40,299 nucleotides of DNA from Planctomycetota bacterium (GTDB taxonomy: Bacteria; Planctomycetota; JAJSAM01; JAJVHW01), in assembly GCA_021414065.1 (NCBI GenBank), contig JAIOPE010000161.1, positions 1-40,299 on the forward strand. Direction: 5' to 3'. A program made the position numbers and the translations under genes. The notes beneath the pieces are model-generated. The model saw nothing but the letters and a program-made list of their open reading frames with translations. It searched no databases and was not told the DNA's origin. Positions 1 to 37,429 of the stretch are shown piece after piece. Within the stretch, counting starts at the first letter, position 1. Each line of letters opens with the position of its first letter.

Positions 1-69
1 CGCCGTGAACGCGATCAGCGTCTTCGGCATGGTGTCATCGCGCATGAGAGGGATCTGGTCAGCCAACAT
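1..69 (-). CDS. Partial 5' end of an outward-facing gene (MLADQIPLMRDDTMPKTLIAFTA...), running off the window edge; function unknown
   Basis: ATG at 69 (reverse strand) preceded by GGAGG; identical to the mirror-image partial ORF at 40255..40299; only 23 codons visible. Confidence 0.4.
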   Translation of the reverse strand, partial: MLADQIPLMRDDTMPKTLIAFTA

Positions 70-70
70 C

Positions 71-91
71 TAGACCTCCGTGTTAGGTCTA
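71..91. promoter_or_regulatory. 7-bp stem / 7-nt loop hairpin (tagacct-ccgtgtt-aggtcta) covering the Shine-Dalgarno sequence of the flanking gene; mirror copy at 40233..40253
   Basis: Perfect palindrome read directly from the sequence; GGAGG lies in the 3' arm and the hairpin ends 2 nt before the ATG. Confidence 0.5.
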
Positions 92-139
92 TGTTAGCTT
101 GACCCTCCGACAGGCACCTGAGCGACGTGGAGAGGCCTC

Positions 140-375
140 GCCCGGATCATTCACGAAGCTCCGCGGGAGGACGGCGTGCGTCGCAGGAAGCACAAGCACT
201 TCACGCCGATTCTAGGTACGTTCGCGCCACGACACACTGTCCTGGGCGAGATCCGCGGAGTCGGCCGCAAGGCGGGACCCGCAGCGTCGGCTTTGTCAAG
301 CCACGCAAGGGTCCCGACGCAGCGGACGACCCGCGGGCTCGTCCAGGCGCGGAGCTTCGTGAATGATCCGGGCTA
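140..375 (+). repeat. Copy 1 of a ~235-bp terminal-inverted-repeat-bounded, miniature-transposon-like / structured-RNA-like element (arms gcccggatcattcacgaagctccgcg and its exact complement)
   Basis: The two 26-nt terminal arms are perfectly complementary; the ~100-nt core gagatccgcggagtcggccgcaaggcgggacccgcagcgtcggctttgtcaagccacgcaagggtccc... is shared with the copies at 4632, 37430 and 39951; TA at the right junction (374-375) forms the TAG stop of the 373..810 gene. Confidence 0.85.
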
Positions 376-810
376 GGACCGGACGGTCGCCGAGTCGGCC
401 TCGCCCACGCGCGCGCCGTCAGGCGCGGGCGCGTGGGGAGCGGCCGGGTCGAGGTCCCATCCGAACTTCTCTTTCATCATGCGCATCAGCCAAGGCACAG
501 CGACGCTCAGCGCTGCCTCTCGGATGATCGTGGACCACATCGACTGGGCCGGCGGGGGACTGCCCCTGTTCTGCGTCCCCGACCGGCTCTCGGACTTCCT
601 GGCGATGAACATCTTCACGAGCATGGCGCCGACGATCGCGCCGACGCCCGTGGACGCGACTGGGTTGTCGTGGATCATCTTCCCGAGGCCGAGTGGGTCT
701 CGGGCGTGCTCGGTGAGGCCGTCGGCCGCGCGTCGCCACTTGCGCCGAGCGACCTCTCGTTCCGCTCGGAGCGTCTCCCACTCCCGCTTCCAGTCGGTCT
801 CGTACTTCAC
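373..810 (-). CDS. DUF883/YqjD-like membrane-anchored protein (third gene of a yqjD-yqjE-like operon); GTG start
   Basis: C-terminal DNPVASTGVGAIVGAMLVKMF anchor motif resembles ElaB/YqjD proteins; GTGA start/stop overlap with the upstream gene at 807-810; the stop TAG is formed at the repeat-element junction. Confidence 0.55.
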   Translation of the reverse strand: MKYETDWKREWETLRAEREVARRKWRRAADGLTEHARDPLGLGKMIHDNPVASTGVGAIVGAMLVKMFIARKSESRSGTQNRGSPPPAQSMWSTIIREAALSVAVPWLMRMMKEKFGWDLDPAAPHAPAPDGARVGEADSATVRS

Positions 811-1247
811 GGCGCCTCGTCTCCGGGCGCGTCGCGCCCGTTGCGCAGCATCTCGACGTCGGCGTTGAACTCCGCGAGCGTCGCCGGGAATGCGAGGTCC
901 GGCGAGCTGAGTCGGCCGGTCGCGCGGACGGCGAACGCCACGCCGGTGCCGAGAGTGCCGATGCCGACGATCGCGAACGCCAGCCACTCGTCCATTCCGG
1001 TGACGTGCGCAACCAGAAGCGACACGCCGAAGAGGCTGAGCGTGAGTCCGACCGCGGCAACCAGAAGGGCGGCGACGAGAAGCGCCAGGCGGAGAACCAC
1101 CCGCTGCAGCACCACGCGCCCTTCGGACGCTGCCATCTGGGCAGTGTTGTGGGCCAGGTCCACGCCGGAATCAGCGAGTGCGCGGAGCAGTGCGAAGAAA
1201 CCGCGCTGCTCCGCGCCGGCCAGCTGCGAGGGCTCGGGCCGCTGCAT
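807..1247 (-). CDS. YqjE-like (DUF1469, holin-X-like) inner membrane protein
   Basis: Two hydrophobic helices; genome-typical GC3-rich codon usage; start ATG 5 nt after the upstream TAG; gene order DUF883-DUF1469 as in E. coli yqjD-yqjE. Confidence 0.7.
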   Translation of the reverse strand: MQRPEPSQLAGAEQRGFFALLRALADSGVDLAHNTAQMAASEGRVVLQRVVLRLALLVAALLVAAVGLTLSLFGVSLLVAHVTGMDEWLAFAIVGIGTLGTGVAFAVRATGRLSSPDLAFPATLAEFNADVEMLRNGRDAPGDEAP

Positions 1248-1252
1248 CGCTG

Positions 1253-1471
1253 CTACGACGTACGACGCCCGAGGAGGTACCCGAGGAGGGCGCCGACGCC
1301 GACGGCGACGAGGACCGACTTCACCGGGTTCTCCGAGATGTAGTCACGGGAAACCTCGAACTTCTCCTGCGTGCCGGTGACGACCTTGTCCTTGAGACGC
1401 GTTGCGGCCGCCTCGACCGTGCGAGCGCCTTCGACCAGCGCGCCATCAACTGCTGAAATGCGATCTGCCAT
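1253..1471 (-). CDS. DUF883 (ElaB/YqjD/YgaM) family ribosome-associated membrane protein
   Basis: C-terminal ENPVKSVLVAVGVGALLGYLLGRR anchor typical of DUF883; GAGGTG Shine-Dalgarno upstream of the ATG at 1471. Confidence 0.75.
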   Translation of the reverse strand: MADRISAVDGALVEGARTVEAAATRLKDKVVTGTQEKFEVSRDYISENPVKSVLVAVGVGALLGYLLGRRTS

Positions 1472-1573
1472 ACGACACCTCATTCGTTCGTTCTGTCCAT
1501 CCGACTCGGCGGAGACACTCCGCCGATCCGTGAGCGACTTCGTCTCGCGACGTCGTCCGTTCACCCACGCAGG

Positions 1574-2017
1574 CTATGACTCACCGTGTCTGCGCGCCAT
1601 GGGGTGGAACCCGACCCGGGCCTTTGCTTCGATCTCCGGCGTCGTCATCTTGTCTGCCGTCTCCACGCTGACGACGCACTTCTCGGGCACGGTCTTCTCG
1701 ATGCGCTTGCGCAGCTCGCCCTTCGCCTCTCCGGGTCCGAAGATGGCGATTGTCTGGGCACCTTGGAACGCGGCGATCACCCGGTCGTAGTACACGTCGA
1801 TCTGCGCGTTGAACTTGCGATCTCGGGAGTCGTCGTGCGGCACGTGCACGGCCTCGTGCTTGACGTTCGACCGCACGCCGTCGGTCCTTCCGAGTTGTCG
1901 TTCGACGTCCGACTCGATGATCGTCGTAGCCTCGACGTCGTTGATCAGAGTCACGACGATCGCGCGGCGGTGGTCGATCCACAGCGCCACGCGCTTTCCC
2001 TCTGCCTGATTGGTCAT
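1574..2017 (-). CDS. Conserved hypothetical cytoplasmic protein (147 aa; possibly host-attachment-like or eRF1-like, uncertain)
   Basis: Strong AAGGAG Shine-Dalgarno 7 nt upstream of the ATG at 2017; balanced amino-acid composition unlike the overlapping Arg-rich artefact ORFs. Confidence 0.75.
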   Translation of the reverse strand: MTNQAEGKRVALWIDHRRAIVVTLINDVEATTIIESDVERQLGRTDGVRSNVKHEAVHVPHDDSRDRKFNAQIDVYYDRVIAAFQGAQTIAIFGPGEAKGELRKRIEKTVPEKCVVSVETADKMTTPEIEAKARVGFHPMARRHGES

Positions 2018-2042
2018 CTGTTGCTCCTTCGGTTCACCGCGA

Positions 2043-2213
2043 CTACTTCGTCTTGATCGCTTCGCCGGCTTCCTTCACCTTGTCGCCGGTCTTGTCGAGC
2101 GCGCGGTCGAGCTTCTCGCCGGGCGTGTCGCCGCGGTTGTTGCAGGCGCACAGACCGAGACCGAGGAACGCGGACGTCAGGACGAGCAAGGCGGTCTTCT
2201 TCGTGATGTGCAT
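2043..2213 (-). CDS. Small lipoprotein (56 aa; entericidin/CsbD-like composition)
   Basis: MHITKKTALLVLTSAFLGLGLCAC signal peptide with a lipobox cysteine; GGAGA Shine-Dalgarno; it is the only plausible coding part of the 509-aa six-frame ORF 2043..3572. Confidence 0.65.
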   Translation of the reverse strand: MHITKKTALLVLTSAFLGLGLCACNNRGDTPGEKLDRALDKTGDKVKEAGEAIKTK

Positions 2214-2558
2214 GACGGACTCTCCGGATTGTGGTCCGGGGCCGACACCCGACTCATTCGGGGCCGCTCCCCGGTGCCGAGGGCGCGCCGCCGACGAGTT
2301 CGAACGGCGCCGACTCAGGTTAGACGCAGCCTGCGCCCGGTTGCCATGGGGTCGAACCCTACCTGGCCGCAGCAAGGGAGAGAGCAAGCACGTTCGCGCG
2401 CCGTGCGATCCGCTGGTCCGTCGGAAGTAGGGTTTCGCCCCATTGTTGGAATAGTCCGCCGGACCTAGTGTATGGGGCAGCGGGACCTTCGGCACGCGGG
2501 CATTCGCACTCAGCGGACGACGCACCAGCCGAACGGAGTCCTGCGATAGGAGCGCCAC

Positions 2559-2945
2559 ATGAGACTCTCGATACCAGCCGCACTTGCGGTCTGTCTTTTC
2601 ACGGCCGTCGCGTGCCAGAGCGCCACCGTCCGTGGGCCGCAGGGCCAGTCGGTCACCGCGAACGCACCGGTGTGGATGACGATCCACCGCGGCGAGTCGT
2701 CGCCCCTTGAGATCGGCATCGACCGTACGAAGTTCACGGGGCCGGTCACGGTTTCCATCTTCCAGCTCCCGAAGGGAGTCGAGTCCGACAAGGCGTCGAT
2801 CAAGGCCGAGACCACCAGCGTCACCTTCATCTTGAAGGCCTCGAAGACGGCCGACCTCGTCAGCAACCAGGCGGTCGGCATCACGGTCGAGGATCCGAGC
2901 GGGCGCCAGGCCACCCAGTTCGTCAATCTCACAGTCAACGACTGA
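2559..2945 (+). CDS. Lipoprotein (128 aa), paralog of the next gene
   Basis: Signal peptide with LFTAVAC lipobox; shares LPKGVxSDKASI / LPKGVDVVDSGSKI and overall architecture with the 2985..3392 gene. Confidence 0.75.
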   Translation: MRLSIPAALAVCLFTAVACQSATVRGPQGQSVTANAPVWMTIHRGESSPLEIGIDRTKFTGPVTVSIFQLPKGVESDKASIKAETTSVTFILKASKTADLVSNQAVGITVEDPSGRQATQFVNLTVND

Positions 2946-2984
2946 GCCCGGCTCCGGTCCCAAACAACGAGCAACGAGAACACA

Positions 2985-3392
2985 ATGAACAACAACCTCA
3001 TCGTCGCAGCATTCGCTCTCACGTTCGCAGCGTCCGCCCTTGCCGGATGCTCGAAGAGTTCGACCGTCCAGAGCGCTTCCAACGGCAAGCTGACGCTGGT
3101 CAAGCCGGCCGCCGTGACGATCTATCGCGGCGGGATGACGAAGGCGGCCGTCAAGATCCAGCGCGCGGACCTTCTCGGTGACGTCTCGATCGCGTTCACG
3201 GACCTCCCGAAGGGTGTGGACGTGGTGGACTCCGGCAGCAAGATCGTCGGCGACGAAGGCAGCTACACGCTGCGCGCCGGCGACGACGCGGCTCTCGTCG
3301 AGAACTACTCGGCGACCGTCACCGCCACGACCGGAACCGGAGGCATCGCAGTCTCCGAGCCGATCACCATCAGCGTCAAGGTCAAGCAGTAG
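2985..3392 (+). CDS. Lipoprotein (135 aa), tandem paralog of the 2559..2945 gene
   Basis: Signal peptide MNNNLIVAAFALTFAASALAGC; paralogous core. Confidence 0.75.
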   Translation: MNNNLIVAAFALTFAASALAGCSKSSTVQSASNGKLTLVKPAAVTIYRGGMTKAAVKIQRADLLGDVSIAFTDLPKGVDVVDSGSKIVGDEGSYTLRAGDDAALVENYSATVTATTGTGGIAVSEPITISVKVKQ

Positions 3393-3534
3393 GCGCCCGC
3401 GACCGCAGACAACCATGCGGTCCCGGTCGTCGGTCGTGAGCAGTGGATCGTCGGTGCGCCCCCGTTCGGCGGGTGGACCGACGGTTCGGGTTGAGTGTCG
3501 GGGGTCCGCGCGCGGCTCCGCACCAGGAGTTTCC

Positions 3535-4137
3535 ATGACGATGACGTGCCCCGGATCAGTTGTGAATTTCATCCTCGACGAGGAGCCCCATCTCCACAGC
3601 GTCGCGCGGAGGCTGACTCGATGCGAGTCCGACTCCGACGACCTGGTGCAGGAGACGCTGCTCCGGGCGTATCACGCGCGGGACCGGTTCCAGCCGGGTA
3701 CGTCGGCGCGTGCGTGGACGACGACCATCCTCCGCCGGCTCTTCCTCACCGGCGCGGTGCGTGCGAAGCGCGCCTGGATGCGGACGGACACCGACGCGTG
3801 CGGTCCGCTGGGAGTCTCTGTCGCCCGCGCGCCCGCGCAGGTTGACGCGAACTTCGAGTCGTCGCACGACCGGCCGGCGCCGGACATCCGGACGCTCGGC
3901 GACGGAATGGACGACGTCGTGAAGAACGCGCTGGATCGCGTCCCTGATGTCTATCGCACGACGTTCCTCCTCTCGGTGGTCCGCGGCATGTCGTACGAAG
4001 AGATCGGCCGACAACTCGGTGTGCCGCTCGGCACCGTCATGAGCCGAATCCACCGGGCGCGGGAGCGACTGAAGGGGGACCTCGGTCCGCACCGTCGCGA
4101 ACTCGCCGGGTCGGGCCTGCAGCGTCGCTGCAGTTGA
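3535..4137 (+). CDS. ECF (sigma-70 family) RNA polymerase sigma factor
   Basis: Region 2 (DLVQETLLRAYHARDRFQPGTSARAWTTTILRR) and region 4 (MSYEEIGRQLGVPLGTVMSRIHRARERL) motifs; AGGAG Shine-Dalgarno before the ATG at 3535; the upstream part of ORF 3178..4137 is a low-complexity artefact. Confidence 0.85.
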   Translation: MTMTCPGSVVNFILDEEPHLHSVARRLTRCESDSDDLVQETLLRAYHARDRFQPGTSARAWTTTILRRLFLTGAVRAKRAWMRTDTDACGPLGVSVARAPAQVDANFESSHDRPAPDIRTLGDGMDDVVKNALDRVPDVYRTTFLLSVVRGMSYEEIGRQLGVPLGTVMSRIHRARERLKGDLGPHRRELAGSGLQRRCS

Positions 4138-4184
4138 TCGCCGGGCCGGAAGTCGGCACTCGTCAAACTCGAAGGAGAAACACC

Positions 4185-4337
4185 ATGGGTACGCTGCTCA
4201 TTGTCATCCTCGTCCTGATGCTCCTCGGAGCCATTCCGACGTGGCCGCACAGCAAGAGTTGGGGCTACTACCCGAGCGGGGGCATCGGGCTCGTCCTGGT
4301 CATCCTCGTGGTCCTTGTCCTTGCCGGCCGGATCTGA
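4185..4337 (+). CDS. DUF3309 family small membrane protein
   Basis: MGTLLIVILVLMLLGAIPTWPHSKSWGYYPSGGIGLVLVILVVLVLAGRI matches the DUF3309 pattern; GAAGGAG Shine-Dalgarno. Confidence 0.75.
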   Translation: MGTLLIVILVLMLLGAIPTWPHSKSWGYYPSGGIGLVLVILVVLVLAGRI

Positions 4338-4482
4338 GCGAAGTCGGGGCGCGGATAGGCCCTCTGGCGGATCGGCCATGAAGGGACCTGTGCGTCAGTT
4401 TCACGGCAAGCATGTCGCCGCTCGCCTCGTGGCGGTGAGCAGCGCCTGGAAGTTCCCCGTCGGCCACGGATAGGCGGTTCCC

Positions 4483-4632
4483 ATGCTCGATACCCTGATC
4501 ATCGTCCTCGTCATCATGTGGCTGCTCGGCCTCGTCACGTCCACCACGCTCGGTGGGTTCATCCACGTGCTGCTGGTGATCGCTGTCATCGCCGTGCTGC
4601 TCCGGCTCATTCGCGGCCGAAGGGCGGTCTAG
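4483..4632 (+). CDS. lmo0937-family small membrane protein (49 aa; not in the ORF track)
   Basis: MLDTLIIVLVIMWLLGLVTSTTLGGFIHVLLVIAVIAVLLRLIRGRRAV read from the sequence; the TAG stop at 4630-4632 overlaps the first base of repeat copy 2. Confidence 0.65.
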   Translation: MLDTLIIVLVIMWLLGLVTSTTLGGFIHVLLVIAVIAVLLRLIRGRRAV

Positions 4633-4865
4633 CCCGGACAATGCACGAGGGTTCGCGTGAGAACGGCACGCATCGTAGGAAACAGAAGCACTTCACGCCG
4701 ACTCAAGGCACGTTCGCGTCGCGACACACTGTCCTGGCAGAGATCCGCGGAGTCGGCCGCAAGGCGGGACCCGCAGCGTCGGCTTCGTCAAGCCACGCAA
4801 GGGTCCCAACGCAGCGGACGGCCCGCGGGCTCGGCCAGGCGCGAACCCTCGTGAATTGTCCGGGC
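4632..4865 (+). repeat. Copy 2 of the element bounded by 26-bp terminal inverted repeats
   Basis: Arms gcccggacaatgcacgagggttcgcg and cgcgaaccctcgtgaattgtccgggc are 25/26 complementary to each other, yet differ from copy 1 at 6 arm positions, 5 of them compensated on the partner arm; TA flanks both ends. Confidence 0.85.
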
Positions 4866-5002
4866 TAGATGGGACCGAGCCGAGTCGTCGGAATCGTGCT
4901 CATCGCGGCCGGGGCGTACGTCCTCTTCACGCGCAAGTCCTAGGTAGCCGTCCAAATCACTCACCGCTCGGTTTCCCGCGCGGCCTTCCGGAGGCATCGT
5001 CC

Positions 5003-5161
5003 ATGCAGAAGTTCATCCGTGTTGCAGTCGTCGTCGCAGTCTTGGCGCCCATGCTCCTCGCCATCACCGGGTGCCGCACCAGCGCTCAGAACGGCGCGCT
5101 GATCGGCGCCGGCGCGGGCGCGCTCGGCGGCTACGTGATCGGCAACGAGCGCGACAAGTAG
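5003..5161 (+). CDS. Small glycine-zipper lipoprotein (52 aa)
   Basis: MQKFIRVAVVVAVLAPMLLAITGC lipobox followed by GALIGAGAGALGGYVIG; GGAGG Shine-Dalgarno. Confidence 0.65.
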   Translation: MQKFIRVAVVVAVLAPMLLAITGCRTSAQNGALIGAGAGALGGYVIGNERDK

Positions 5162-27894: not shown

Positions 27895-28343
27895 TGGCAT
27901 CCCAGGGATCGTCGTCGCCCGACGTCGGGGGCACTGCTCGCGCGATCCAGCCCGCGGGCTGGCCGAGGCCCCGCGGTTACAGCAACGGGGTGCTCGTCCC
28001 GGCCGGCCACGACATGGTGTTCACGGCCGGAATGGTCGGGTGGGACGTCCACGAGAGAATCGTTCCGGGCGGGTTCGTCCCCCAGTTCGAGCAGGCGCTC
28101 GCGAACATCGTGGCGGTCGTTCGCGCGGCCGGCGGCGGGCCCGAGCACATCGTGCGGATGGTGGCCTTCGTCGTGGACAAGCGCGAGTACCTCGACGCGC
28201 AGGAGTCGCTGGGTGCTGCGTGGCGACGCGTGATCGGACGTCACTTCCCCGCGATGGCGCTCGTGCAGGTGGCGGGCCTCGTCGAGGCCGACGCGCGCGT
28301 CGAGATCGAAGCGGTCGCAGCGATCCCGGCGAAGCGGGAGTGA
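27894..28343 (+). CDS. RidA/YjgF/TdcF family reactive-intermediate deaminase-like protein
   Basis: YjgF-fold pattern (...VFTAGMVGWD...IVRMVAFVVDKREY...ALVQVAGL...EIEAVAAI); its GTG start overlaps the tatA TAG. Confidence 0.85.
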   Translation: MASQGSSSPDVGGTARAIQPAGWPRPRGYSNGVLVPAGHDMVFTAGMVGWDVHERIVPGGFVPQFEQALANIVAVVRAAGGGPEHIVRMVAFVVDKREYLDAQESLGAAWRRVIGRHFPAMALVQVAGLVEADARVEIEAVAAIPAKRE

Positions 28344-28350
28344 GCCGGTG

Positions 28351-30102
28351 ATGCGACGCCGCGGTGTCCGGTCGGTGGGCGTGCTCGCGATCGTCGGAGC
28401 CATGGCGGGCGGGGCCCTCTCGGGGGATCTTCCAGGCGGCACGCACGGGATCGCAACCGCGCTCGCCGACGAGGGCTCCCCCCGCGTGCCCGCCCCGGAA
28501 GCGCCGGGCGTGGACCTGGCGGCGCCCGAGACCGCGGCGTGGATGCGCCAGGACTGGTTCGGCGTTTTCTGTGGCGAGCACCGCGTGGGCTGGATGCGCC
28601 GGTCGCTCGCCCGCGCCGAGTTCGCGGTGGGCGCCAGCGCTGGCGTTGGCGCCGGCGTGCCGTCGATCGTCCGTGAAGTCGAGGTCCACATCGACGTCGC
28701 GGGCGACGGCAACGAGATCGTGAATGCGACGCGCACCGTCTGCCGCGCTGATGGCGGCCAAGAACTCCTCGCCGCGTCGTCGGAACGCCGGGAGCAGGGA
28801 AAACGCACCGCGCGTGAGATCGTCCGCAACGGCCAGCGGTTCGACGTCGTCACCGAGCGGCGGGGCGAGCGCGTCGAAGGCGCGGTTGCGGCGACGACCT
28901 GTTCGCTCGCCGACGAACTCGGGATCGAGCGCGTCGTAGCCCTCGCCGCGCGCGGCCCGGCGGCGCCCGGGAAATCGCACGCGCTGCGGGTTGCGTCGAT
29001 CGACCTCGGCACGCTGGTCGCCGGCCAGCGTCGTCTGACCGTCGGATCCGTCGAGGGCGAAGGCGACGCGCGCATCTTCACCGTGGAGGTCGAGGTCCTG
29101 TCGGGCGAGGACACGCGTTCGGGGAGAGATCCGCGCCCCGCCAAGGACACCGTACGCGTCGATGTGACGGGCGCGGTGGTCGAGGGCTCGCTCGGCCCAC
29201 GGTTCTCGTACCGCAGGGAGGACGAGGTCGTCGCGAAGCACGCGGCGTCGCGGAAGTCGCTCGAGGCGCTCTCTCGTATCCCGCTCGACGCACCCGGCGA
29301 TCGGCCGATCGGTCCGCAGTCATCTGCCGAGTGCGTTCCCGCAGCCAGGCTCGGCGATCTCGCGGGCGTGAAGAAACTCACCATCGCGTGGGACGACGCG
29401 AAGGGCCGCGCGTTCGTCGCGAACGCCCGGCAGAAGGTCCGGATCGACGGCAAGTCGCTTGTCGTCGCGATCGGCCGCGACGCCGACGCCGAATCGAGTG
29501 CGGTTCCCGCCGACGAGGCCTCGCAGCGCGACGCCCTCGTGGACGAGCCGGGGCTCGGCGTGGTCGATCCGAACGTCGGCAAGGCCGTGTCGTTCCTGCT
29601 CCGGGGCACGGCGAACCGCGGCCAGCAGGTGGCACGGATACTCGAATTCACGTCCACCCGGATTGCGAAGGAAGTCGTTCTCGGCACGCCGTCCACGCTT
29701 GAGATTCTCCAGACACTCCGCGGCGACTGCACGGAGCACGCGCAGGTGTTCGTTTCCTTCTGCCGCGTTGCGGGCATTCCGGCGCGCACGGTCGAGGGCC
29801 TCGCGTGGATGGGCGACGACGTCGGCGCGTTCGGCTGGCACCAGTGGGCGGAGGTGGCGATCGGCGGGAAGTGGCTGGCGCTCGATCCCACGACGGGAAT
29901 GGACCCCGCGCCTGCGGCGCACATCGCGCTGGACGCCACGCCCGAGATGCGCACGCTGCTCTGGGGGGCTCGACTTCGGCTGGTCGGAGTCGAGCGGGAC
30001 GACAAGAAGGCGCGGAGCGATGCCGATCCGCAGGGGGCTCCGTCCGCGGGCGCGCCCGCTTCCCCGGCCGCACCGCCCGAGTCGCCAACGCGCCCGCGCT
30101 GA
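28351..30102 (+). CDS. Secreted transglutaminase-like cysteine protease domain protein (583 aa)
   Basis: Signal peptide; C-terminal TGase core GDCTEHAQVFVSFCRVAGIPARTV...GWHQWAEV...ALDPT (Cys-His-Asp). Confidence 0.8.
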   Translation: MRRRGVRSVGVLAIVGAMAGGALSGDLPGGTHGIATALADEGSPRVPAPEAPGVDLAAPETAAWMRQDWFGVFCGEHRVGWMRRSLARAEFAVGASAGVGAGVPSIVREVEVHIDVAGDGNEIVNATRTVCRADGGQELLAASSERREQGKRTAREIVRNGQRFDVVTERRGERVEGAVAATTCSLADELGIERVVALAARGPAAPGKSHALRVASIDLGTLVAGQRRLTVGSVEGEGDARIFTVEVEVLSGEDTRSGRDPRPAKDTVRVDVTGAVVEGSLGPRFSYRREDEVVAKHAASRKSLEALSRIPLDAPGDRPIGPQSSAECVPAARLGDLAGVKKLTIAWDDAKGRAFVANARQKVRIDGKSLVVAIGRDADAESSAVPADEASQRDALVDEPGLGVVDPNVGKAVSFLLRGTANRGQQVARILEFTSTRIAKEVVLGTPSTLEILQTLRGDCTEHAQVFVSFCRVAGIPARTVEGLAWMGDDVGAFGWHQWAEVAIGGKWLALDPTTGMDPAPAAHIALDATPEMRTLLWGARLRLVGVERDDKKARSDADPQGAPSAGAPASPAAPPESPTRPR

Positions 30103-30172
30103 CCTCCATCGCAGTCCACCCGCGCGATGCCATGTGCATCGACCCGACGACGGTCCGCCCTTGGCCGTTCAA

Positions 30173-30221
30173 CTCAAAGGCCGTGACGAGACCCCGTCAG
30201 GGGTTTCTCCACGGCCTTTGA
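30173..30221. terminator. Bidirectional terminator: 13-bp perfect outer stem (ctcaaaggccgtg / cacggcctttgag) with an inner gagacccc/ggggtttc stem, lying between convergent genes
   Basis: Perfect inverted repeat read from the sequence between the transglutaminase-like gene stop (30102) and the minus-strand lipoprotein stop (30227). Confidence 0.55.
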
Positions 30222-30226
30222 GTGCG

Positions 30227-32077
30227 CTACTTCCCGCCCTTCTTCGCGTCGTCGAGCTTCTTCTGCGCCGCGTTTCCGTACTGCGCCGCGCGGAGGCTCG
30301 GATACGGGTTGCCGTAGGCCTTCGCCGTCGGGTCGGCGCGCTTCTTCGCGAAGGCGACGACCTTCGCCCAGTCGCCCTTCTCGAACCAGTACTTGCAGAG
30401 GTTCTCCAGCGTGTCCCAGTAGCCGCGCCCGGGTTCCTGCCCGTCGTCGTCCACGAGGGCGAGCACCCGGTCGAACATCGGCAGGCTCAGTTCCTTCCGG
30501 TCGGTCAGGTGGAAGAGGTAGATGAGCGCGCAGTCGTTGACGTAGTCCTGCTCGTTGGGCGAGGCATTCACGCTCGCGAGGTAGTAGCGGAGGCTCTGCT
30601 CATAGTCGCGGCCCACGTCGCGGTACCAGAGGCCGGCGTTGTTCCCGTAGCGCCCGTCGCCCGGGTTCTTCGCGACCGCGGCGTCGTATGCGCGCACGCG
30701 CACCGACAGCGGGACGTCCTTGCCGGAGCCCGCCGCGGGATCGTTCAGCAGGCGGTCGAGCGCGTCGGACGCCTCGCGGCAGTCGCCCTCTGCGCTGTTC
30801 TCGACACAGGCGGTGAACTCGCGCACAGCGTCGGTCGTCGCGCCCGCTTGGTCCGCCAGGAGGCCCAGGTTGTAGTGAACCGCCGGGTGCTTCGGCGCCA
30901 CCTTCACGGCGGCGTCGAGAACCTCCTTGGCTCGCTTCGTATCAGGCGTCCCCTCGGTGCGCACGACGTGCGCCGTCCACAGATACGCCCACACGGCCTT
31001 CGGGTTCCCGTCGATGACCTTCTGCAGCGCCGCGAGCTTCTTCTCGCGCTCCTTCGGGTAGATGGCCGCCAGCAGGCGCACGGGTTCCGCGTCGTCCGGA
31101 AGCAGCGCCGCCGCCGCGACGTAGCCCGCCTCGATCTGGTCCGAGGGCACCCGCAGCCACTGCTTCGCGATGGTCGCCTGGAGCCGCGCGCGACCGTCCG
31201 ACGGGTCCAGTGCGGCGGCCCGCGTCCAGTGGACGTCGGCCTGCTCCCAGTTGCGCACCGCCGTCGCCATCTCGCCGAGGATCGCGTGGGCCTCGCCGTC
31301 GTCTGGGAACTCGCGGAGGCGCCGCTCGAGAACCTCCTTCGCTCCCGCGGGGTTCTCCTCGAACCGGAGGATCCGCGCGCGCAGCACGGCGCCGCCGGGC
31401 ACGTCGGCGTCGATCGCGGTCGCCTGCTTCCACCGCATGTGGGCGTCCGCGACGAGTCCCTTCACCAGGAAGCCGTCCTCACTGCGAGCGAGCCCCAGCT
31501 CAGCGAGTGCCAGAAACGCGCGCCCCTGTGCAATGCGCAGGTCGGCGCTCGTCCCCAACTTCTCTTCGGCGGCACGGAGGTCGGAGATCGCCTCCGACGC
31601 GAGGCCTTCTGCGATCTTCGCCCGCGCCGAATCGATCGCTTCCTGCACCCCGGGTGCGATCGGGGCACGCGGTGGCTTGACGGGCGCAGGCGGGACCGGC
31701 GGCGCGGCGGGCTCCTTCGGGGCGCTGGGCTCCGACGCGGTCGGCTTCGACTTCGACGCGTTCGGATCGTCGGTTTTCGGAACGTCCGCGTTGGGACCGA
31801 CCGCGTTTGGATGGTCCGCGTTGGGATCCGAGGGTCGCGGCGATGGGTCGCGCGGGGCGCGGCTGGCTTCGGGGATCTCGCCCGCCGGACGCCCCGGCGT
31901 CGCGGCGGGGGACGGCACCGTCGATCCCTCGCGCTCGGAGGCGTGCTCACCGGTCGTCGGCGCGGCGTCCGGCCGAGCGGTGATCGGGGGCACGTCGCCC
32001 GGATCGGCTCTCCCGCACGCGGAGAGAAGCGCCAACGGGAGACCGAGCAACGCTGAACGGCGGCGGGATGTCTGCAT
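30227..32077 (-). CDS. TPR-repeat lipoprotein (616 aa) with a Pro/Ala-rich N-terminal linker
   Basis: MQTSRRRSALLGLPLALLSAC lipobox; long disordered PAPK-rich linker, then TPR-like helical repeats. Confidence 0.8.
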   Translation of the reverse strand: MQTSRRRSALLGLPLALLSACGRADPGDVPPITARPDAAPTTGEHASEREGSTVPSPAATPGRPAGEIPEASRAPRDPSPRPSDPNADHPNAVGPNADVPKTDDPNASKSKPTASEPSAPKEPAAPPVPPAPVKPPRAPIAPGVQEAIDSARAKIAEGLASEAISDLRAAEEKLGTSADLRIAQGRAFLALAELGLARSEDGFLVKGLVADAHMRWKQATAIDADVPGGAVLRARILRFEENPAGAKEVLERRLREFPDDGEAHAILGEMATAVRNWEQADVHWTRAAALDPSDGRARLQATIAKQWLRVPSDQIEAGYVAAAALLPDDAEPVRLLAAIYPKEREKKLAALQKVIDGNPKAVWAYLWTAHVVRTEGTPDTKRAKEVLDAAVKVAPKHPAVHYNLGLLADQAGATTDAVREFTACVENSAEGDCREASDALDRLLNDPAAGSGKDVPLSVRVRAYDAAVAKNPGDGRYGNNAGLWYRDVGRDYEQSLRYYLASVNASPNEQDYVNDCALIYLFHLTDRKELSLPMFDRVLALVDDDGQEPGRGYWDTLENLCKYWFEKGDWAKVVAFAKKRADPTAKAYGNPYPSLRAAQYGNAAQKKLDDAKKGGK

Positions 32078-32501
32078 CCGGCGGAGACTACCCGGACCGG
32101 CCGCGCGGGGGAACCCGGCTCGGTTCGCGACACCCTCTGAGGAGCCGTCGCGGTCGCCGTGCGACGCAGTGCTACGGTCTCGCTACGCTCCGGGCGCCGA
32201 GTCGCGAACGGTACAAGCGTGTTCCGCGCGGCAACGTGCGAAAGTGGTCACCAGGTGTCAACGCCTGGAGTCGCCTTGGCACCTCGGGCGCGTACGAATC
32301 GTGTCAGTCCGGCGGCTCCCGGCCTCGCCGATGCGCCGTGCGGGATCGACCGACGCCTGGCGGGAGATCGGCGCGGGTGTGGCACGGCGCGTGCTTTAGG
32401 TGGAGCGACGCACTCAGGGGTCGCGAACCCACGCGTAAAGCACGGGTTTCACCCTCCCTTCCCATCCCCAACCCAAGAAACCGTCTCCCCCTGGGGCGTC
32501 C

Positions 32502-32540
32502 GGGGCATCCTCCGCGAGGAGGGTGCCCCGGCGTCTTTTC
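32502..32540 (+). terminator. Intrinsic-terminator-like hairpin: 12-bp stem with a GCGA (GNRA) tetraloop followed by GCGUCUUUUCC, inside a 630-bp intergenic region
   Basis: ggggcatcctcc-gcga-ggagggtgcccc (one G.U wobble), then a tcttttcc tract; no plus-strand CDS lies upstream. Confidence 0.6.
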
Positions 32541-32710
32541 CGGGACCGCAGCGCGGCGCAGGGCACCGCGGCAGGCCTCAGCGCGTCGGCATCGAGTCGT
32601 CGTCCGTGGGCCGAAGGCACGCACCCGTTGCGTCCGGTGTGTCCCTGGGTTTCGGGGTGCCGCTGCGGGCTGCGCGGAATTCGAGTCAATCCAAACGGGC
32701 TCCCGGTCCG

Positions 32711-34714
32711 ATGGGTGACCGTCGGTCGGACGTGCCTTCCGGAGATTGCAGTTCATCCTCCGGGGTGGTACGAGTCCCGCCCGACGTCCCCCGAGACGAG
32801 AACACCGCCTTGCAGCCCCGCATCGACGACCCCCGACCGCCCGCCACGGACTCCGCGCGCGACCAAGCGCAGCGGGCCGCAGCCGAGGACGCGCTGATCC
32901 AGCGCGTCGCGGAACTCGAGGAAACGGTCGCCGCCGAGCGCGCGCAGCACGCTGCGCGTGCGAAGGAGGTCGAGGCCGGCGTGGCGGTTCTGCGCCGGAC
33001 CATGCAGCAGTTGCAGGAGGAGACGAGGCGCCGCCGCGACGAGAACGCGCGTCTCGTCGAGCAGTTGGAGCAGAGCCGTGTCATCGTCGAGGAGAGGTCT
33101 GCAACCGGGCAACCGGCCGGGCCGGACGCGGCCACCGCGGACGCGCTCGAGGCCGCGCTGGCCGACGCGGATCAGGCGCGCCGCGACGCGGAGGTCCTCG
33201 TCGCTCGGATCGCGTCCATCGAGGACGAGCTCATTGCTCGCGACAACGAGCTGACGCGCGCCGCCGATCGCATCGCTGAGCTGGAGTCGAGGGTCGCCGC
33301 TTCCTACCGCGAGCCGACCGCCCAAGCGGCGGCACCGCTTGCGACCGTCGGTCGTCTGGCACCGAAATCCCCCGCGCGCTTCGAGACGGACGAGGACCTG
33401 CTCACCGACGACTCGCCGGAAGCGGCTTCGTCCCCGGTGGAGCTCGCGCCGAAGGTCCCGACGCCGGACGCCTCCGCCCCGGCTGCGACGACCGCGTCTG
33501 CGATCGCGGCACCTTCTCCGCTCGTGCCGGCTTCCGGCGCGCCCAAGACGACTGCCGCCGACCACGCCGCCGCCGCCCGTCGCAACGACGAGGAGCATCT
33601 CGCTGCTGCTCCCGCCGCCGCGCAGGACCCGTCGTTCCCGCAGATCGCGGGTCTCCGCGTCGAGCGCCTCGTCGAGGAGACGGCTTCCGGCAGCGTCTAC
33701 GAAGCGCGCGAGATCGAGTCGCGCCGCGCCGTCGTGGTCCGCATCCTTCCCGGCGTGATGAAGCTGCTCGACGGCAAGCGACTCGACTCCGTCCTGCTCG
33801 CAAAGCACCCGAATCTCGTGTCGGTGCTCGGCTTCGCAGTCTGTCGTCAGGGGCCCTACCTCGTGATGGAACGGGACGAGGGCGAGTCGGCCGCCGACTG
33901 GGTTGCGCGCCTCGGCACGCTGCCCGAGCGGATCGCCCTCTCGGTCATCCTGGAGATCGCGCGTGGGCTCCGCCAGGCGGCGTTTCACGGTGCGTTCCAC
34001 GGCGACCTCTCGCCGGACTCCGTTCTCATCGACGTCGCCGGGCGCGTGCGCGTTCGCGGCGTCGGGCTCAGAGTGGTGCTCTCGCCGAACGACGGTTCGG
34101 CCCGCGCGCCGGAGTTCGCATCCACCGAGCGCCTGCGCGGGAGTCCGCCGCCGGATGTCCGAGCGGATCTCTACTCCCTCGGCGCGGTGCTCTTCTTCCT
34201 GCTCACCGGGAAGCCACCGTTCGCCGGCGAACGCGACGCGCTTCTGCGTCAGCACGCGGCGAACTCGCTGCCCGACGTACGCGAATCGCGGCCGGACGTC
34301 TCCGACGACACAGCCAAGCTGCTCCGCCGACTCCTCGCGTCCGACCCGGACCTGCGTCCGCAGACGTGGGATCAGCTCCTCGTGGAACTCGAGCGCCGCG
34401 TCCCGGGCCGCGTCTCCACGGCGTTGCGTGGCAACATGTCCACGCGCGCGCGTCGCTTCGTGGTCGCGAATCCGTGGGTGCTCGGTGCGGCCGTCGGCGG
34501 CCTGCTCCTCGTCGCAGGGATCTGGCGCGTCGCCCTCTCGCACGACCCGTCGGCTTCAGAGCGGTTCCGCGCGGCCTGCGTGACGGCCGAGAAGCTCGCT
34601 GCGGCGGGCGACCCCGAAGAGGCCCGCGGCGTCTATCGCCGGTTCCTCGCGGGCACCGGCGACGCCGACGTCGAGCGCGAAGCTGCGCGGCGCTTCGACG
34701 AGCTGAAGAAGTAG
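32711..34714 (+). CDS. Ser/Thr-kinase-like protein (probable pseudokinase) with an N-terminal coiled coil and a C-terminal transmembrane helix; start uncertain
   Basis: Kinase subdomain VIb is degenerate (HGDLSPDSVLID instead of HRDLKPxN); subdomain IX DLYSLGAVLFFLLTGKPPF; coiled-coil N-terminus; transmembrane helix VLGAAVGGLLLVAGIW; the upstream part of ORF 32159..34714 looks non-coding. Confidence 0.7.
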   Translation: MGDRRSDVPSGDCSSSSGVVRVPPDVPRDENTALQPRIDDPRPPATDSARDQAQRAAAEDALIQRVAELEETVAAERAQHAARAKEVEAGVAVLRRTMQQLQEETRRRRDENARLVEQLEQSRVIVEERSATGQPAGPDAATADALEAALADADQARRDAEVLVARIASIEDELIARDNELTRAADRIAELESRVAASYREPTAQAAAPLATVGRLAPKSPARFETDEDLLTDDSPEAASSPVELAPKVPTPDASAPAATTASAIAAPSPLVPASGAPKTTAADHAAAARRNDEEHLAAAPAAAQDPSFPQIAGLRVERLVEETASGSVYEAREIESRRAVVVRILPGVMKLLDGKRLDSVLLAKHPNLVSVLGFAVCRQGPYLVMERDEGESAADWVARLGTLPERIALSVILEIARGLRQAAFHGAFHGDLSPDSVLIDVAGRVRVRGVGLRVVLSPNDGSARAPEFASTERLRGSPPPDVRADLYSLGAVLFFLLTGKPPFAGERDALLRQHAANSLPDVRESRPDVSDDTAKLLRRLLASDPDLRPQTWDQLLVELERRVPGRVSTALRGNMSTRARRFVVANPWVLGAAVGGLLLVAGIWRVALSHDPSASERFRAACVTAEKLAAAGDPEEARGVYRRFLAGTGDADVEREAARRFDELKK

Positions 34715-34791
34715 TCGGCCGCCCGTCAGGGTCCGGCAGTCGTCAGTCGCGAGTCGGCTACCCGGTCACGTAGATCGGTACGTGAGCGCCC

Positions 34792-35520
34792 TCATCGCCC
34801 GGCGGCTCCGCGGTGGCCGAGTACGAGGTGCGGCACGTCGGCGAACGTGCGCGCCACGAGCGTCGGGGGGCCGACTGGTTCGAGCGGTTCCTCGTCGCGG
34901 TGCCACGGCGCGGGGTGCGGCACGTGGACTGTCAGCATCCCTGCGCGTCGCGCCGGGTTCACGTCGCTCCGAGCGCTGTTCCCGACCATCCACGCCATGC
35001 GCGGTTCGGTCTGCCGCCGCTCGCACTCCTGTGCGTAGGCGCCCGAGTGCTTCTCCGGGACGACGCGCACGCCGTGGAACAGACTCGCGAGCCCTGAACG
35101 CTCGACCTTCGCCGTCTGCTCCGCCTCGTCGCCTTTCGTGAACACGACGAGCCGCGCGCGGGGCGCCATCGCGGTCAGCGCCTCGGCCACGCCCGGGAGC
35201 AGTTCGATCGGGTGGGAGCGGATCGCGTCCTCGGCCCACAGTGCGAGATCGCCGAACGCTCCCGCCTCCCCGCGCGGCGCCCCGGGTCGGAGTTCTGCGT
35301 ACGCTTCGCGCAGCGACGCGACGAACGGCGCCGCGCCGTACCCGGTGCGCGGGATGTTCCGGTCCTCGCACGACTCGAGCGCCGCCGTCGCGCGGACCGT
35401 GTCCACGCCGCAAGACTCCATGAACTGCGCCCACGCATCGAGGACGCGCACGAAGTGCCGGTAGTTCTCCCAGAGCGTGTCGTCGGCATCTACGAGCACG
35501 AGCGGCAGGTGGTGCTTCAC
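34792..35520 (-). CDS. HAD-superfamily hydrolase; GTG start
   Basis: LVLVDADDTLW (DxDxT motif I), then the C-terminal ...VFTKGDE...GNSARSDV... blocks; diverges from the GT gene at 35565 with only a 44-bp gap. Confidence 0.7.
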   Translation of the reverse strand: MKHHLPLVLVDADDTLWENYRHFVRVLDAWAQFMESCGVDTVRATAALESCEDRNIPRTGYGAAPFVASLREAYAELRPGAPRGEAGAFGDLALWAEDAIRSHPIELLPGVAEALTAMAPRARLVVFTKGDEAEQTAKVERSGLASLFHGVRVVPEKHSGAYAQECERRQTEPRMAWMVGNSARSDVNPARRAGMLTVHVPHPAPWHRDEEPLEPVGPPTLVARTFADVPHLVLGHRGAAGR

Positions 35521-35564
35521 GGCGGGATGGTACTGAAGCGGCGCGACGCTCGTACGATGCGGGT

Positions 35565-36794
35565 GTGCGACTTCCGCCGGTTCTCCGCGCCTGCCTCCTC
35601 CTCTTCGCCACCGCGCTCGTCGTGCGCGTCGGCGCCGCGCTCGTTCTCGGAATCGCGGGCGCGCCGGTCGAAGACGAGATCGACTACGTCGCGCTCGCGC
35701 GCTCCCTCGCGTCGGGCCGCGGCTTCTCGTTCGTTCCGGCGGGCTTCGAGCACCTCGAACCGCGCATGGCATTCCGCCCGCCGTTGCTCCCGCTGCTCCT
35801 GACGCCGGTGACGTGGCTCGGCGGCGGCGTCGCCGCGATGCGGTGCGTGTCGATCGTCTGCGGTGCGCTGGTCCCGGTCTTCGCATATCTCGGCCTCCGT
35901 CGCACGTCGCTCGGCGAGCGGGCGCGGTGGGTCGGCGTGCTGCTCGCGTTCTGGCCCACGGGCGTCTGGCTCTCGATCCGCGTGCTTGCAGAACCCTTGG
36001 CCGCAGCGCTGATCCTCGGCGCGATTGCGGTTCCCCCCGACGACGCCGCGCACCCACGGCGTTCGGCCCTTGCCGGCGCCCTCGCCGGGCTCTCGGTCCT
36101 CGCGCGTCCGGCGTCGATCGTCGTGGCGGCGCTTCTCGCGGGCACCCGCGGCGGACGCACACGCGCCCTGTGGTTCGCCGCCGCACTCACGGTCGTCGTC
36201 GCGCCGTGGGCGGTGCGGAACGCGGCGATCCACGGTCGTCCGCTCCTCACCACGAACACCGGCGTCACGCTGGTCGGCGGGAACTCCGCGGCGTCGCTCA
36301 CATCGGCGGCGCCCGGCCGCTGGCTGACTCCCGACGTCACGTACGCCGGTGCAGCGAACGCGCCGGACCTGTGGATGTGGGGCTGGTCCGGCGAGACCGA
36401 GGAATCGAGCGACCGGCGGTTTGCGGCCGACGCGATCGCGTGGACGACCGGACACCCGGCAGACGCCGCCCGGCTGGCCGCGTGGAAGTTCGTCCGCTTC
36501 TTCGACCCCGATCAGCACAGCGCGAAGCCGGACGCCGCACTGAAGCGGGCGATCGGTTGGGCGACGTTCGCGCCGGTGCTCCTCTTCGCACTCGCTGGCC
36601 TCTGGCTGTCGCGCGGCGACCCCGCGCTCCTCCCGTGGGCGCTGCTGCTCGCCGGCACGCTTGCGACGTCGCTCGTGTTCTACTCCGACACGCGCATGCG
36701 CAGCCCCGCCGACCCGGCATTTGCTGCGTTCGCCGCTGTGGCGGCGGCCCGTCTCGTCCGGCGCTCCGTCGTGCGGGGGCCCGGGGGACGGTAG
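35565..36794 (+). CDS. Membrane glycosyltransferase of the ArnT/PMT (GT39/GT83-like) family; GTG start
   Basis: Multiple transmembrane helices; DEIDYVALARSLASGRGF periplasmic-loop motif characteristic of ArnT/PMT-type transferases. Confidence 0.8.
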   Translation: MRLPPVLRACLLLFATALVVRVGAALVLGIAGAPVEDEIDYVALARSLASGRGFSFVPAGFEHLEPRMAFRPPLLPLLLTPVTWLGGGVAAMRCVSIVCGALVPVFAYLGLRRTSLGERARWVGVLLAFWPTGVWLSIRVLAEPLAAALILGAIAVPPDDAAHPRRSALAGALAGLSVLARPASIVVAALLAGTRGGRTRALWFAAALTVVVAPWAVRNAAIHGRPLLTTNTGVTLVGGNSAASLTSAAPGRWLTPDVTYAGAANAPDLWMWGWSGETEESSDRRFAADAIAWTTGHPADAARLAAWKFVRFFDPDQHSAKPDAALKRAIGWATFAPVLLFALAGLWLSRGDPALLPWALLLAGTLATSLVFYSDTRMRSPADPAFAAFAAVAAARLVRRSVVRGPGGR

Positions 36795-36806
36795 AACTAG
36801 GGGGAC

Positions 36807-37415
36807 ATGACCGAGCCCCCACGACGCAGCCCCGCGGAAGCGGATGCCATCCTCAGCGCCGAGTTCGCGCGAATCGGCACGCACCGCGACGCTCTCGGTG
36901 AAACCGGCGCCGCCGCCGTGGCCGGGTGGACGCTCATGCACGGCATGGAGTGGGAAGCCGCCGCGATCGCGTGGGAGATGGCTGCGAAGGGCGACCCCGA
37001 CGACCCCGAACCGCTGAACGAGTGGGGAGTCTGTCTGCTTGAACTCGGCCGGTTCGACGAGGCGGCGAATCTGTTCCGCCGGACGATCGACGTCGATGCC
37101 CGCCTCGTTGCCGCGGGGCGCGACGGCGTCGAGTGGATGGAGAACGACCCCGCGTACCGGCTCGGAGTCGCGCTCCACGCGAAGGGCGATCTCCGCAGCG
37201 CGATCGCGTCGTACGAAGACAGCGCGCGGCGCAACCCGACGGGCGTGGACGCGCTCCGCGAGGCGGCGCGGTCCCGGCTGGCCCTGGGGGAGCCGGAGGC
37301 TGCGCTCGAGGTGCTCGGGCGCCTCGAGCGTCGCACCGTCCGACTGACCCTGCGAGCCGAGGTGATGGCGATGCGCGCCGACGCGAACCGGATGCTCCGC
37401 GAGCGCGGGACCTGA
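36807..37415 (+). CDS. TPR repeat protein (202 aa)
   Basis: TPR-like helical repeats (WGVCLLELGRFDEAANLFRRTIDVDA..., LGVALHAKGDLRSAIASYEDSARRNP...); AGGGGGA Shine-Dalgarno. Confidence 0.7.
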   Translation: MTEPPRRSPAEADAILSAEFARIGTHRDALGETGAAAVAGWTLMHGMEWEAAAIAWEMAAKGDPDDPEPLNEWGVCLLELGRFDEAANLFRRTIDVDARLVAAGRDGVEWMENDPAYRLGVALHAKGDLRSAIASYEDSARRNPTGVDALREAARSRLALGEPEAALEVLGRLERRTVRLTLRAEVMAMRADANRMLRERGT

Positions 37416-37429
37416 GGCCCGGATGCCTA

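Follow-up and report, generated by a model that had tools for sequence, protein, structure and literature searches.

Several bacteria carry MITEs, such as the Correia/NEMIS, ERIC, and RUP elements, which are short, bear terminal inverted repeats (TIRs), end in TA, and form hairpins, and which are often co-transcribed with genes or fused to gene ends (PMC2229807, PMC2759123, PMC10969869). The RUP element of S. pneumoniae has been linked to the insertion sequence IS630-Spn1 (PMC2229807, PMC2759123, PMC10969869).

We describe an element of this kind from the Planctomycetota. By repeat finding and alignment, we identified four copies of one element of 234–246 nt in a 40,299-bp MAG contig, the whole of which we call the window. 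Like Correia/NEMIS in Neisseria, ERIC (or RU-1) in enterobacteria, and RUP, this element is non-coding, has TIRs with TA termini or a TA duplication, can form a stem-loop over its whole length, and lies at gene ends. Unlike them, it is longer (234–284 nt instead of under 200 nt) and GC-rich instead of AT-rich; also, its fold is branched, it contains a variable tandem repeat of 12–13 nt, and TA is present at only about 45% of its junctions. The elements are a new family of the bacterial MITE kind, and the mechanism is not new. The family is thus an addition for the Planctomycetota: a search of the literature turned up no earlier description, and neither did Rfam (when the whole window was scanned with Rfam 15, no family matched at the gathering threshold).

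Every copy is bounded by 26-bp TIRs of the form RCCCGGATCATTCACGAAGCTCCGCG, and the TIR sequence of the family is given as RCCCGGATCATTCACGA. Eight TIR arms are found in the window, as compared to 0.08 expected by chance. In the alignment, the central ~66 nt are identical in all four copies, and the TIR of copy 2 has paired compensatory changes relative to copy 1. The element has no coding capacity: indels of 12–13 nt disrupt all of its reading frames, and no exact translation of an ORF within the elements is on record as a protein. The copies are short, they are dispersed over unrelated loci, and their TIRs are conserved from copy to copy, which supports the view that they are MITE-like mobile repeats. 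Their surroundings are ordinary chromosomal genes, including a cluster of small stress and membrane proteins, ECF sigma factors, an ABC-F protein, M16 peptidases, a Ser/Thr kinase, TPR proteins, and ClsB. The G+C content of the window is 70%. The locus is carried by the Logan sample SRR15633504. The features that we refer to are collected in Table 1.

Table 1. Coordinates of the repeat copies, the neighbouring gene boundaries, and the terminal repeat of the contig in the window.
Feature	Position	Strand	Remarks
Outer flank L of copy 1	25-139	-	115 nt; matches 40185-40299 in reverse complement at 100% identity
Element copy 1	140-373	+	234 nt; TIR arms 140-165 and 348-373
Flanks of copy 1			right TA 374-375, left TC 138-139
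TAG stop of ORF 373-810	373-375	-	its G lies opposite C373, the last base of copy 1
TAG stop of the lmo0937-family gene	4630-4632	+	gene 4483-4632, 49 aa; the G is the first base of copy 2
Element copy 2	4632-4865 (G4632..C4865)	+	234 nt; flanks TA 4630-4631 and TA 4866-4867, with the tetranucleotide CTAG at both ends
24-codon hydrophobic ORF	4869-4943	+	starts 1 nt past TA 4866-4867
TGA stop of the TPR gene (36807-37415)	37413-37415	+	12 nt ahead of the left TA of copy 3
Probable original ATG of the downstream membrane-protein gene	37423-37425	+	separated from the gene body by copy 3
Element copy 3	37430-37675	-	246 nt, 12-nt internal insertion; flanks TA 37428-37429 and TA 37676-37677
ORF of the downstream gene at present	37665-38018	+	ATG within the copy 3 TIR, overlapping the TGA of the read-through ORF (ATGA)
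TAA stop of the ClsB-like gene 38740-39951	39949-39951	+	copy 4 overlaps the last base
Element copy 4	39951-40184	-	234 nt; left flank TA 39949-39950, right flank GA 40185-40186
Outer flank L of copy 4	40185-40299	+	other arm of the inverted repeat at the contig ends

We ran a degenerate pattern for the TIR against 185,579 species genomes (GTDB) and the JGI metagenomes. It identified 22 loci in the Planctomycetota MAG Bin_16R (JAJVHW01) and 2 in the MAG P01_B01_bin.39 (JBCCGH01). All 22 of the loci in Bin_16R are complete copies (233–284 nt) with a mean mutual identity of 93.5%, and they are roughly 70–78% identical to the copies in the window (blastn). The two copies in P01_B01_bin.39, both at contig ends, have a 27-nt TIR in common with the others and an unrelated interior, which is the pattern expected if a transposase recognizes the TIR. 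We disregarded the remaining hits: the two matches in the JGI metagenomes lie within coding DNA and arose by chance, and a lone match in a Sulfitobacter genome has no partner TIR and was treated as chance. The invariant core of 22–26 nt gave no matches at all in the GTDB species genomes, IMG/VR, or the JGI metagenomes, so the MAG that the window comes from and its close relatives are not in those collections. The counts of junctions and stop codons below are for 26 complete copies (four from the window and 22 from Bin_16R), or 52 junctions.

A sequence-only reading of this DNA had placed copies 1, 2, and 4 exactly on stop codons, and both the coordinates and the sequences are correct. At each of these copies, one base is common to the element and the stop codon, which consists of the two flanking bases plus the terminal purine. 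If the elements inserted at random TA sites, finding at least three of the four window copies on stop codons would have P = 0.03. The same reading described all of the copies as lying immediately 3' of a gene. This is true of copies 1, 2, and 4; copy 3 does follow the TGA of the TPR gene at the distance that was claimed, but it lies inside the 5' end of the next gene.

Two of the overlapped genes in the window have relatives that show where the protein should end. The 49-aa protein upstream of copy 2 belongs to the lmo0937 family (NCBIfam NF033488, E = 1.5e-15); among 120 listed family members, most are 48–50 aa, and they share the GRR-x-x end. The C-terminus of the ClsB-like protein upstream of copy 4 (..SIEDWL) is flush with those of nine homologs (55–75% identity). 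Because both proteins have native C-termini, these elements must sit exactly on the original stop codons, and they have neither truncated nor extended the proteins.

Comparison with element-free orthologous loci, a check that had been proposed along with these claims, shows that copies 2 and 3 reconstruct to the gene boundaries of relatives, albeit distant ones (~70% nucleotide identity). For copy 3, the relative is a Logan contig (L004, from SRR34519444) that is syntenic with positions 28133–39905 of the window at ~70% nucleotide identity. It contains the TPR gene, a 108-aa gene, an EEP-family gene, and ClsB in that order, and it lacks copies 3 and 4. In this contig, the 108-aa gene begins 7 nt past the TPR stop, and its N-terminus is MPESDAPR. 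If copy 3 and one TA are removed from the window, then ATG-CC (37423–37427) joins TA-ACGAC to give ATG CCT AAC GAC GAC, the start of MPNDDGPR, and the spacer after the TPR stop is 7 nt, the same as in L004. This reconstruction suggests that the TA into which copy 3 inserted straddled the second and third codons of the downstream membrane-protein gene. From the orphaned ATG, an 81-codon ORF now runs across copy 3 to a TGA (37666–37668). The downstream gene probably now starts at the ATG in the TIR (37665), and an in-frame GTG at 37707 might be used instead. We considered whether the TIR provides the start codon at other copies as well. One locus (L028) resembled copy 3 in this way, but the real start of that gene is probably Met-24, which would begin a signal peptide.

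Removing copy 2 along with one TA gives GTC-TAG-ATG. In one relative (L032), the lmo0937 gene terminates in GTC-TAG; in another (L033, a JGI contig whose lmo0937 gene is 87% identical), the sequence is ACC-TAG-ATG, and a small hydrophobic gene lies directly after the stop codon. In the reconstructed empty site, the 24-codon hydrophobic ORF adjoins the lmo0937 stop directly, as in L033. The protein similarity between this 24-codon ORF and the 72-aa gene that follows lmo0937 in L033 is not significant. For copy 4, the closest relatives of ClsB end with TGA, TGA, or TAG, which at 59–75% protein identity says little either way; the two with TGA, and hence without a TA at that position (L002 and L003), are only 64–75% identical.

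What the elements insert into is best considered alongside the insertion sequences with similar targets. Members of the IS630/Tc1-mariner family duplicate a TA, and IS630 itself reportedly prefers CTAG, a result credited to Tenzen and Ohtsubo in 1991. Elements of the IS5 group duplicate 4 bp, YTAR, and the other subgroups of the IS5 family duplicate 2–4 bp, according to the descriptions in ISfinder.

The sequence-only reading interpreted the TA flanks as a TA target-site duplication and the elements as Tc1/mariner- or IS630-type MITEs. As it stated, TA lies on both sides of copies 2 and 3. It had described TA flanks for the elements generally, and this is not so for the outer junctions of copies 1 and 4, which are TC. 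These two junctions are one and the same flank, so they are not independent, and the window has just seven independent junctions, of which six are TA. Across all 26 copies, TA is found at 23 of 52 junctions (44%), as compared to a genomic frequency of ~0.6%, which is an enrichment of about 70-fold. When the flanks are pooled and read toward the element, the consensus is Y (87%), T (67%), A (71%), and R (96%), followed by CCCGG. TA is present on both sides of 7 of the 26 copies. Identical dinucleotides flank 10 of the 26, and the matching pairs other than TA are TC/TC (L005 and L008) and AA/AA (L022). These identical flanks, together with the agreement of copies 2 and 3 with element-free relatives, are the duplication and the empty sites that are expected of a MITE.

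TA is the core of the target, but 29 of the 52 junctions do not have it. Within the copies of Bin_16R, 94% of A/T positions are retained, which rules out decay after insertion as the source of the non-TA junctions. Their excess does not fit a strictly TA-specific enzyme of the IS630/mariner kind, unless selection or gene conversion keeps the interiors alike. Also, the two copies with TC/TC flanks are at unrelated loci where those flanks abut TGA stop codons, and the two loci share 10 nt of the left flank and 5 nt of the right flank.

We examined the size of the duplication in 23 copies. The outermost base of the tetranucleotide (l4 = r1) repeats directly in 17 of these (chance 0.42, P = 0.002), and the innermost base (l1 = r4) repeats directly in 15 (P = 0.04). 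Six copies have perfect 4-bp direct repeats (CTAG twice, TTCA twice, GTAA, and CAAG). These matches favor a 4-bp YTAR duplication. On the other hand, 18 of the 23 copies have terminal bases that are complementary to each other (P = 0.002), which favors their being part of the TIR. Palindromic targets, either CTAG or TTAA, satisfy both signals. Among the copies whose outer bases are not palindromic, with the flanks read by eye, three favor the 4-bp model and four favor the 2-bp model. From the flanking sequences, an IS5-like duplication of 4 bp seems just as possible as an IS630-like duplication of 2 bp, and the two are indistinguishable here. With a duplication of 4 bp, the purine that had been counted as the element's first would instead belong to the gene, as the third base of its stop codon.

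The resemblances are divided in the same way. Like IS630/Tc1-mariner elements, this family has a TA-centred target, CTAG as the most common tetranucleotide at its junctions, and symmetric TIRs; unlike them, it has many non-TA junctions and outer bases that repeat directly, and we found no IS630-type transposase or parent. Like IS5 elements, it has Y-T-A-R directly outside of CCCGG and perfect 4-bp repeats, including non-palindromic ones; unlike them, the perfect repeats are a minority and the terminal bases usually pair, which would suit membership in the TIR, and we found no parent IS. So, of the original proposal, the MITE-like nature and the TA-centred target stand, while the consensus is Y-T-A-R instead of TA, and the assignment to IS630 has an equal competitor in IS5.

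To survey the stop codons, we called genes ourselves, using a codon-usage model that had been trained on the long ORFs in these loci. In 12 of the 26 copies (9/22 in Bin_16R and 3/4 in the window), the element's terminal base doubles as the third base of a stop codon, and three more copies are within 1 nt of a stop. This survey of two genomes, which had been suggested as a check, bears out the association with stop codons. We did not find an earlier report of the one-base overlap with stop codons, seen here in about half of the copies, in a limited search of the literature on bacterial MITEs. TAG accounts for eight of the overlapped stops, and TAA and TGA for two each. The TGA overlaps have TG in the flank and A in the element, and they occur only with an A-terminal copy; thus, the stop is maintained. 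The element's right end is at the stop in seven cases and its left end in five, and both orientations are as expected from a mechanism with symmetric TIRs.

The explanation that had been offered was that TA dinucleotides are concentrated in stop codons in a GC-rich genome, so that a TA-targeting element would land on gene ends. We counted the free sites in the same sampled DNA, which is about 200 kb. There are 1110 free TA sites in coding sequence, 154 in intergenic regions, and 42 in free stop codons, so TA is not concentrated in stop codons; insertion at these sites would place 21% of copies at stops. YTAR tetranucleotides, in contrast, are almost missing from coding sequence, with 5 coding sites, 25 intergenic sites, and 4 sites at free stop codons, or 14% expected at stops. 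This gives a countable reason for TA- or YTAR-targeting elements to lie on stop codons at high GC: YTAR is nearly forbidden in reading frames. The idea that targeting brings the elements to gene ends thus holds, with YTAR in the place of TA. Nevertheless, 12 of 26 is more than either count predicts (P = 0.004 versus the TA null and P = 7e-5 versus the YTAR null). Relative to free sites, the enrichment at stops is about 2- to 3-fold (Fisher P = 0.016), so the availability of targets is not sufficient on its own. This extra excess is best ascribed to weaker purifying selection at stop codons, or possibly to some benefit. Most of the TAG stops are preceded by G (37/50), and elements occupy five of the eight C-TAG stops.

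We give a probability of roughly 70% to the following account: a TIR element is moved by a trans-acting transposase that targets Y-TA-R, and selection then filters the insertions and leaves the copies at stop codons. The 26-bp TIR ending in CCCGG would be the binding site of the transposase. The enzyme is probably of the DDE type, with the target as the guide to its family. It would insert the element into a TA-centred and roughly palindromic Y-TA-R site and would duplicate either the TA (as in IS630) or the whole tetranucleotide (as in IS5). At 70% GC, YTAR should be nearly impossible within reading frames, as TAR is a stop codon in one frame and gives rare codons otherwise, so the available targets would mostly be intergenic spacers or TAG and TAA stops that are preceded by a pyrimidine. 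Insertion at the TA of a stop codon would leave TA and a purine at the junction, and the protein would be unchanged; insertions elsewhere would be removed more often by selection. Among the copies that are retained, about half would then overlap a stop codon by one base, and copies would be enriched between convergent genes. We found no transposase gene or long TIR pair in the window or in the other loci that we fetched, and no autonomous partner IS with these TIRs was seen in the 185,579 species genomes (GTDB) or the JGI metagenomes. Because MAGs often lack IS copies, the absence of a partner is weak evidence. This account leaves the understanding of transposition mechanisms unchanged.

It's also possible, but in our view rather unlikely, that positive selection makes the association with gene ends. 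Specifically, the element might have been exapted as a useful hairpin that stabilizes or processes the 3' ends of mRNAs, serves as a substrate for RNase III or RNase E, or insulates convergent genes from each other. Correia and ERIC elements do affect mRNA via RNase III and RNase E (PMC10969869). A benefit would account for the occupation of stop sites beyond what free YTAR or TA sites predict, and 13 of the 26 copies lie between convergent genes, versus ~25% expected (P = 0.005). However, weaker purifying selection at 3' ends would yield an equal enrichment without any function. Also, five copies lie between divergent gene starts and one within the 5' end of a gene, the orientation at stop codons is unbiased (7 versus 5), and the copies in P01_B01_bin.39 retain only the TIR.

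The fold of the element bears on this possibility too. Both strands fold into a long branched hairpin (-140.6 and -142.4 kcal/mol, z = -9.1 and -9.5), and in the alignment of the 26 copies, the consensus fold pairs 97.5% of cells. Two-sided changes are seen at 15 pairs, versus 6.2 ± 1.8 in shuffled alignments and 0–5 in slid controls. The fold is maintained, as a useful hairpin would be; constraint on the RNA, on single-stranded DNA, or on the copying mechanism would all be compatible with this. But 7 of the 15 two-sided changes are in the internal helices 4–7, where they separate the window lineage from Bin_16R. The internal compensatory changes thus represent essentially one split between two lineages and few independent events. 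The sequence-only reading suggested that the long terminal stem could act as a terminator, and here the sequences do not support it: the terminal stems have no T-tract after them and no terminator-like site coincides with them, so they lack the signature of a Rho-independent terminator. The missing T-tract also argues against a function for the hairpin at gene ends.

Somewhat less probable again is that the element itself is adapted to gene boundaries. It would then be a transposon that is specialized for landing on stop codons, instead of merely being filtered by selection; its ends would spare the flanking genes, and its hairpin might act on the 3' end of the mRNA. The ends do have suitable features: each TIR, read outward, closes all three frames with a stop codon (TGA, TGA, and TAR) and contains an ATG that overlaps a TGA (ATGA). 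This ATGA seems able to restart translation, as at copy 3.

Compared to insertion by a trans-acting transposase with target duplication, we consider it quite improbable that the elements are of the REPIN or TIR-repeat type and are moved by a HUH tyrosine transposase (RAYT or TIRYT). In that case, the TA(R) heads would be part of the element or of a recognition tetranucleotide, and insertion would not duplicate the target site. RAYT-like genes with TIR repeats have been described in several species, Rhodopirellula baltica among them, and REPs are known in Planctomycetes (PMC3733652). Like REP and REPIN sequences, our elements are palindromic, structured repeats that are enriched at the 3' ends of genes and between convergent genes. 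The long structured palindrome with its compensatory changes fits such a mechanism, and so do flanks that are semi-conserved instead of strict and that do not match at many copies. Unlike REPs and REPINs, which are made up of 20–40-nt palindromes with a GTAG or CGTC head and go with a RAYT gene flanked by the repeats, the elements have a TIR architecture, with perfect 26-bp arms and a symmetric flank consensus, and they differ in size, lack those heads, and show evidence of duplicated target bases. In particular, non-palindromic direct repeats (GTAA, TTCA twice, and CAAG) flank several copies, and every reconstruction of an empty site requires the removal of exactly one TA. Finally, no Y1 transposase gene is seen in the window.

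The overlaps could also be questioned as a matter of gene calling. We scanned ten of the overlapped genes with Pfam. Seven reached the curated cut-off, including aconitase, inositol monophosphatase, subunit A of topoisomerase VI, and TPR proteins; two were below the threshold (L013 and L017) and one had no hit (L019). ORF 373–810 and the gene at L015 have no family support. So, even though ORF 373–810 matches no family and the genes in Bin_16R come from our own codon-usage caller, it is very improbable that the overlaps are due to chance at high GC or to wrong ORF calls, given that 12 exact one-base overlaps are far above both nulls, that most of the scanned genes are confirmed, and that protein lengths agree with those of homologs.

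These repeats also matter for annotation, as they break MAG assemblies and can be mis-called as ORFs, and copy 3 has displaced the start codon of a gene.

The contig itself ends in a terminal inverted repeat, whose arms are the outer flanks of copies 1 and 4 (flank L in Table 1). Although the two arms of flank L are 100% identical, copies 1 and 4, which adjoin them, are different from their first base onward. We considered a simple inversion by homologous recombination between copies 1 and 4, and we rejected it because the copy at the right-hand flank is of the copy 4 type from its first base. Synteny with relatives breaks exactly at copy 4. Our best guess is that the terminal repeat is the end of a multicopy element that abuts two MITE copies, at the same end of each, or else that it reflects an inversion polymorphism. 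Only 23 residues of the gene in flank L are available, and they have no similarity to the fetched loci; the start of this gene (ATG at 68–70, minus strand) lies behind a hairpin over the ribosome-binding site.

Of the 50 TAG stop codons in all of the fetched loci, 37 have G as the preceding base and only 8 have C. The element is present at five of these eight C-TAG stops, and free CTAG stops are therefore rare. Two element copies at unrelated loci, L005 and L008, share their flanking sequence: 10 nt are common on the left (GTARGCGTTC) and 5 nt on the right (TCAGG). The flanks of both copies are of the TC/TC type, and a TGA stop directly adjoins each copy. L007 and L026 are two further loci where TCAGG comes after the element.

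In every terminal inverted repeat (TIR), if read outward (TCGTGAATGATCCGGGY|TAR), each of the three frames runs into a stop codon (for instance, at 356-376 and 37658-37678 of the window), and every TIR also bears an ATG that faces outward. Copy 3 separates the first two codons of the downstream membrane-protein gene from the rest of the gene (37423-37668 and 37665-38018). The former ATG of this gene now starts an 81-codon ORF that runs through copy 3, and the terminal TGA of this ORF overlaps an in-frame ATG within the TIR (ATGA). This arrangement could permit translational coupling.

Some copies differ in their interiors. In copies from the MAG Bin_16R, the asymmetric side arm contains a 12-13-nt unit (GTACGTCGAT-like) that is tandemly repeated 1-5 times. 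This is a minisatellite within a MITE; an analogous case has been reported in Porphyromonas gingivalis (PMC4596501). The two copies from another MAG, P01_B01_bin.39, each lie at the terminus of a MEGAHIT k141 contig and may therefore represent either another MITE family or one end of the autonomous element.

Element copies at loci outside the window
Feature	Location	Details
Copies with the tandem unit	L006, L007, L012, L013, L015, L019, L021-L023	columns 60-123 of A4 (the alignment of element copies)
Copies from P01_B01_bin.39	L016:1-164, L018:2038-2192	same 27-nt TIR as the other copies, interior wholly different
Copies with shared flanks at unrelated loci	L005:4774-5021, L008:3761-4008	

The two ends of the window's contig (1-139 and 40185-40299) form an inverted repeat, with 100% identity over the 115 nt that lie beyond copies 1 and 4, although the two copies themselves differ by ~12%. 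This shared outer flank contains a gene start (MLADQIPLMRDDTMPKTLIAFTA), and upstream of it is a hairpin, TAGACCT-N7-AGGTCTA, over GGAGG. A multicopy IS whose end abuts MITE ends could account for the shared flank, as could an inversion polymorphism. Copy 4 is also the point where synteny with relatives stops.

At 373-5161 of the window, small genes for stress or membrane proteins are densely clustered. These encode holin-X-like, DUF883, ECF sigma factor, DUF3309, lmo0937 family, and glycine-zipper lipoprotein products, and two copies of the element lie within this cluster.
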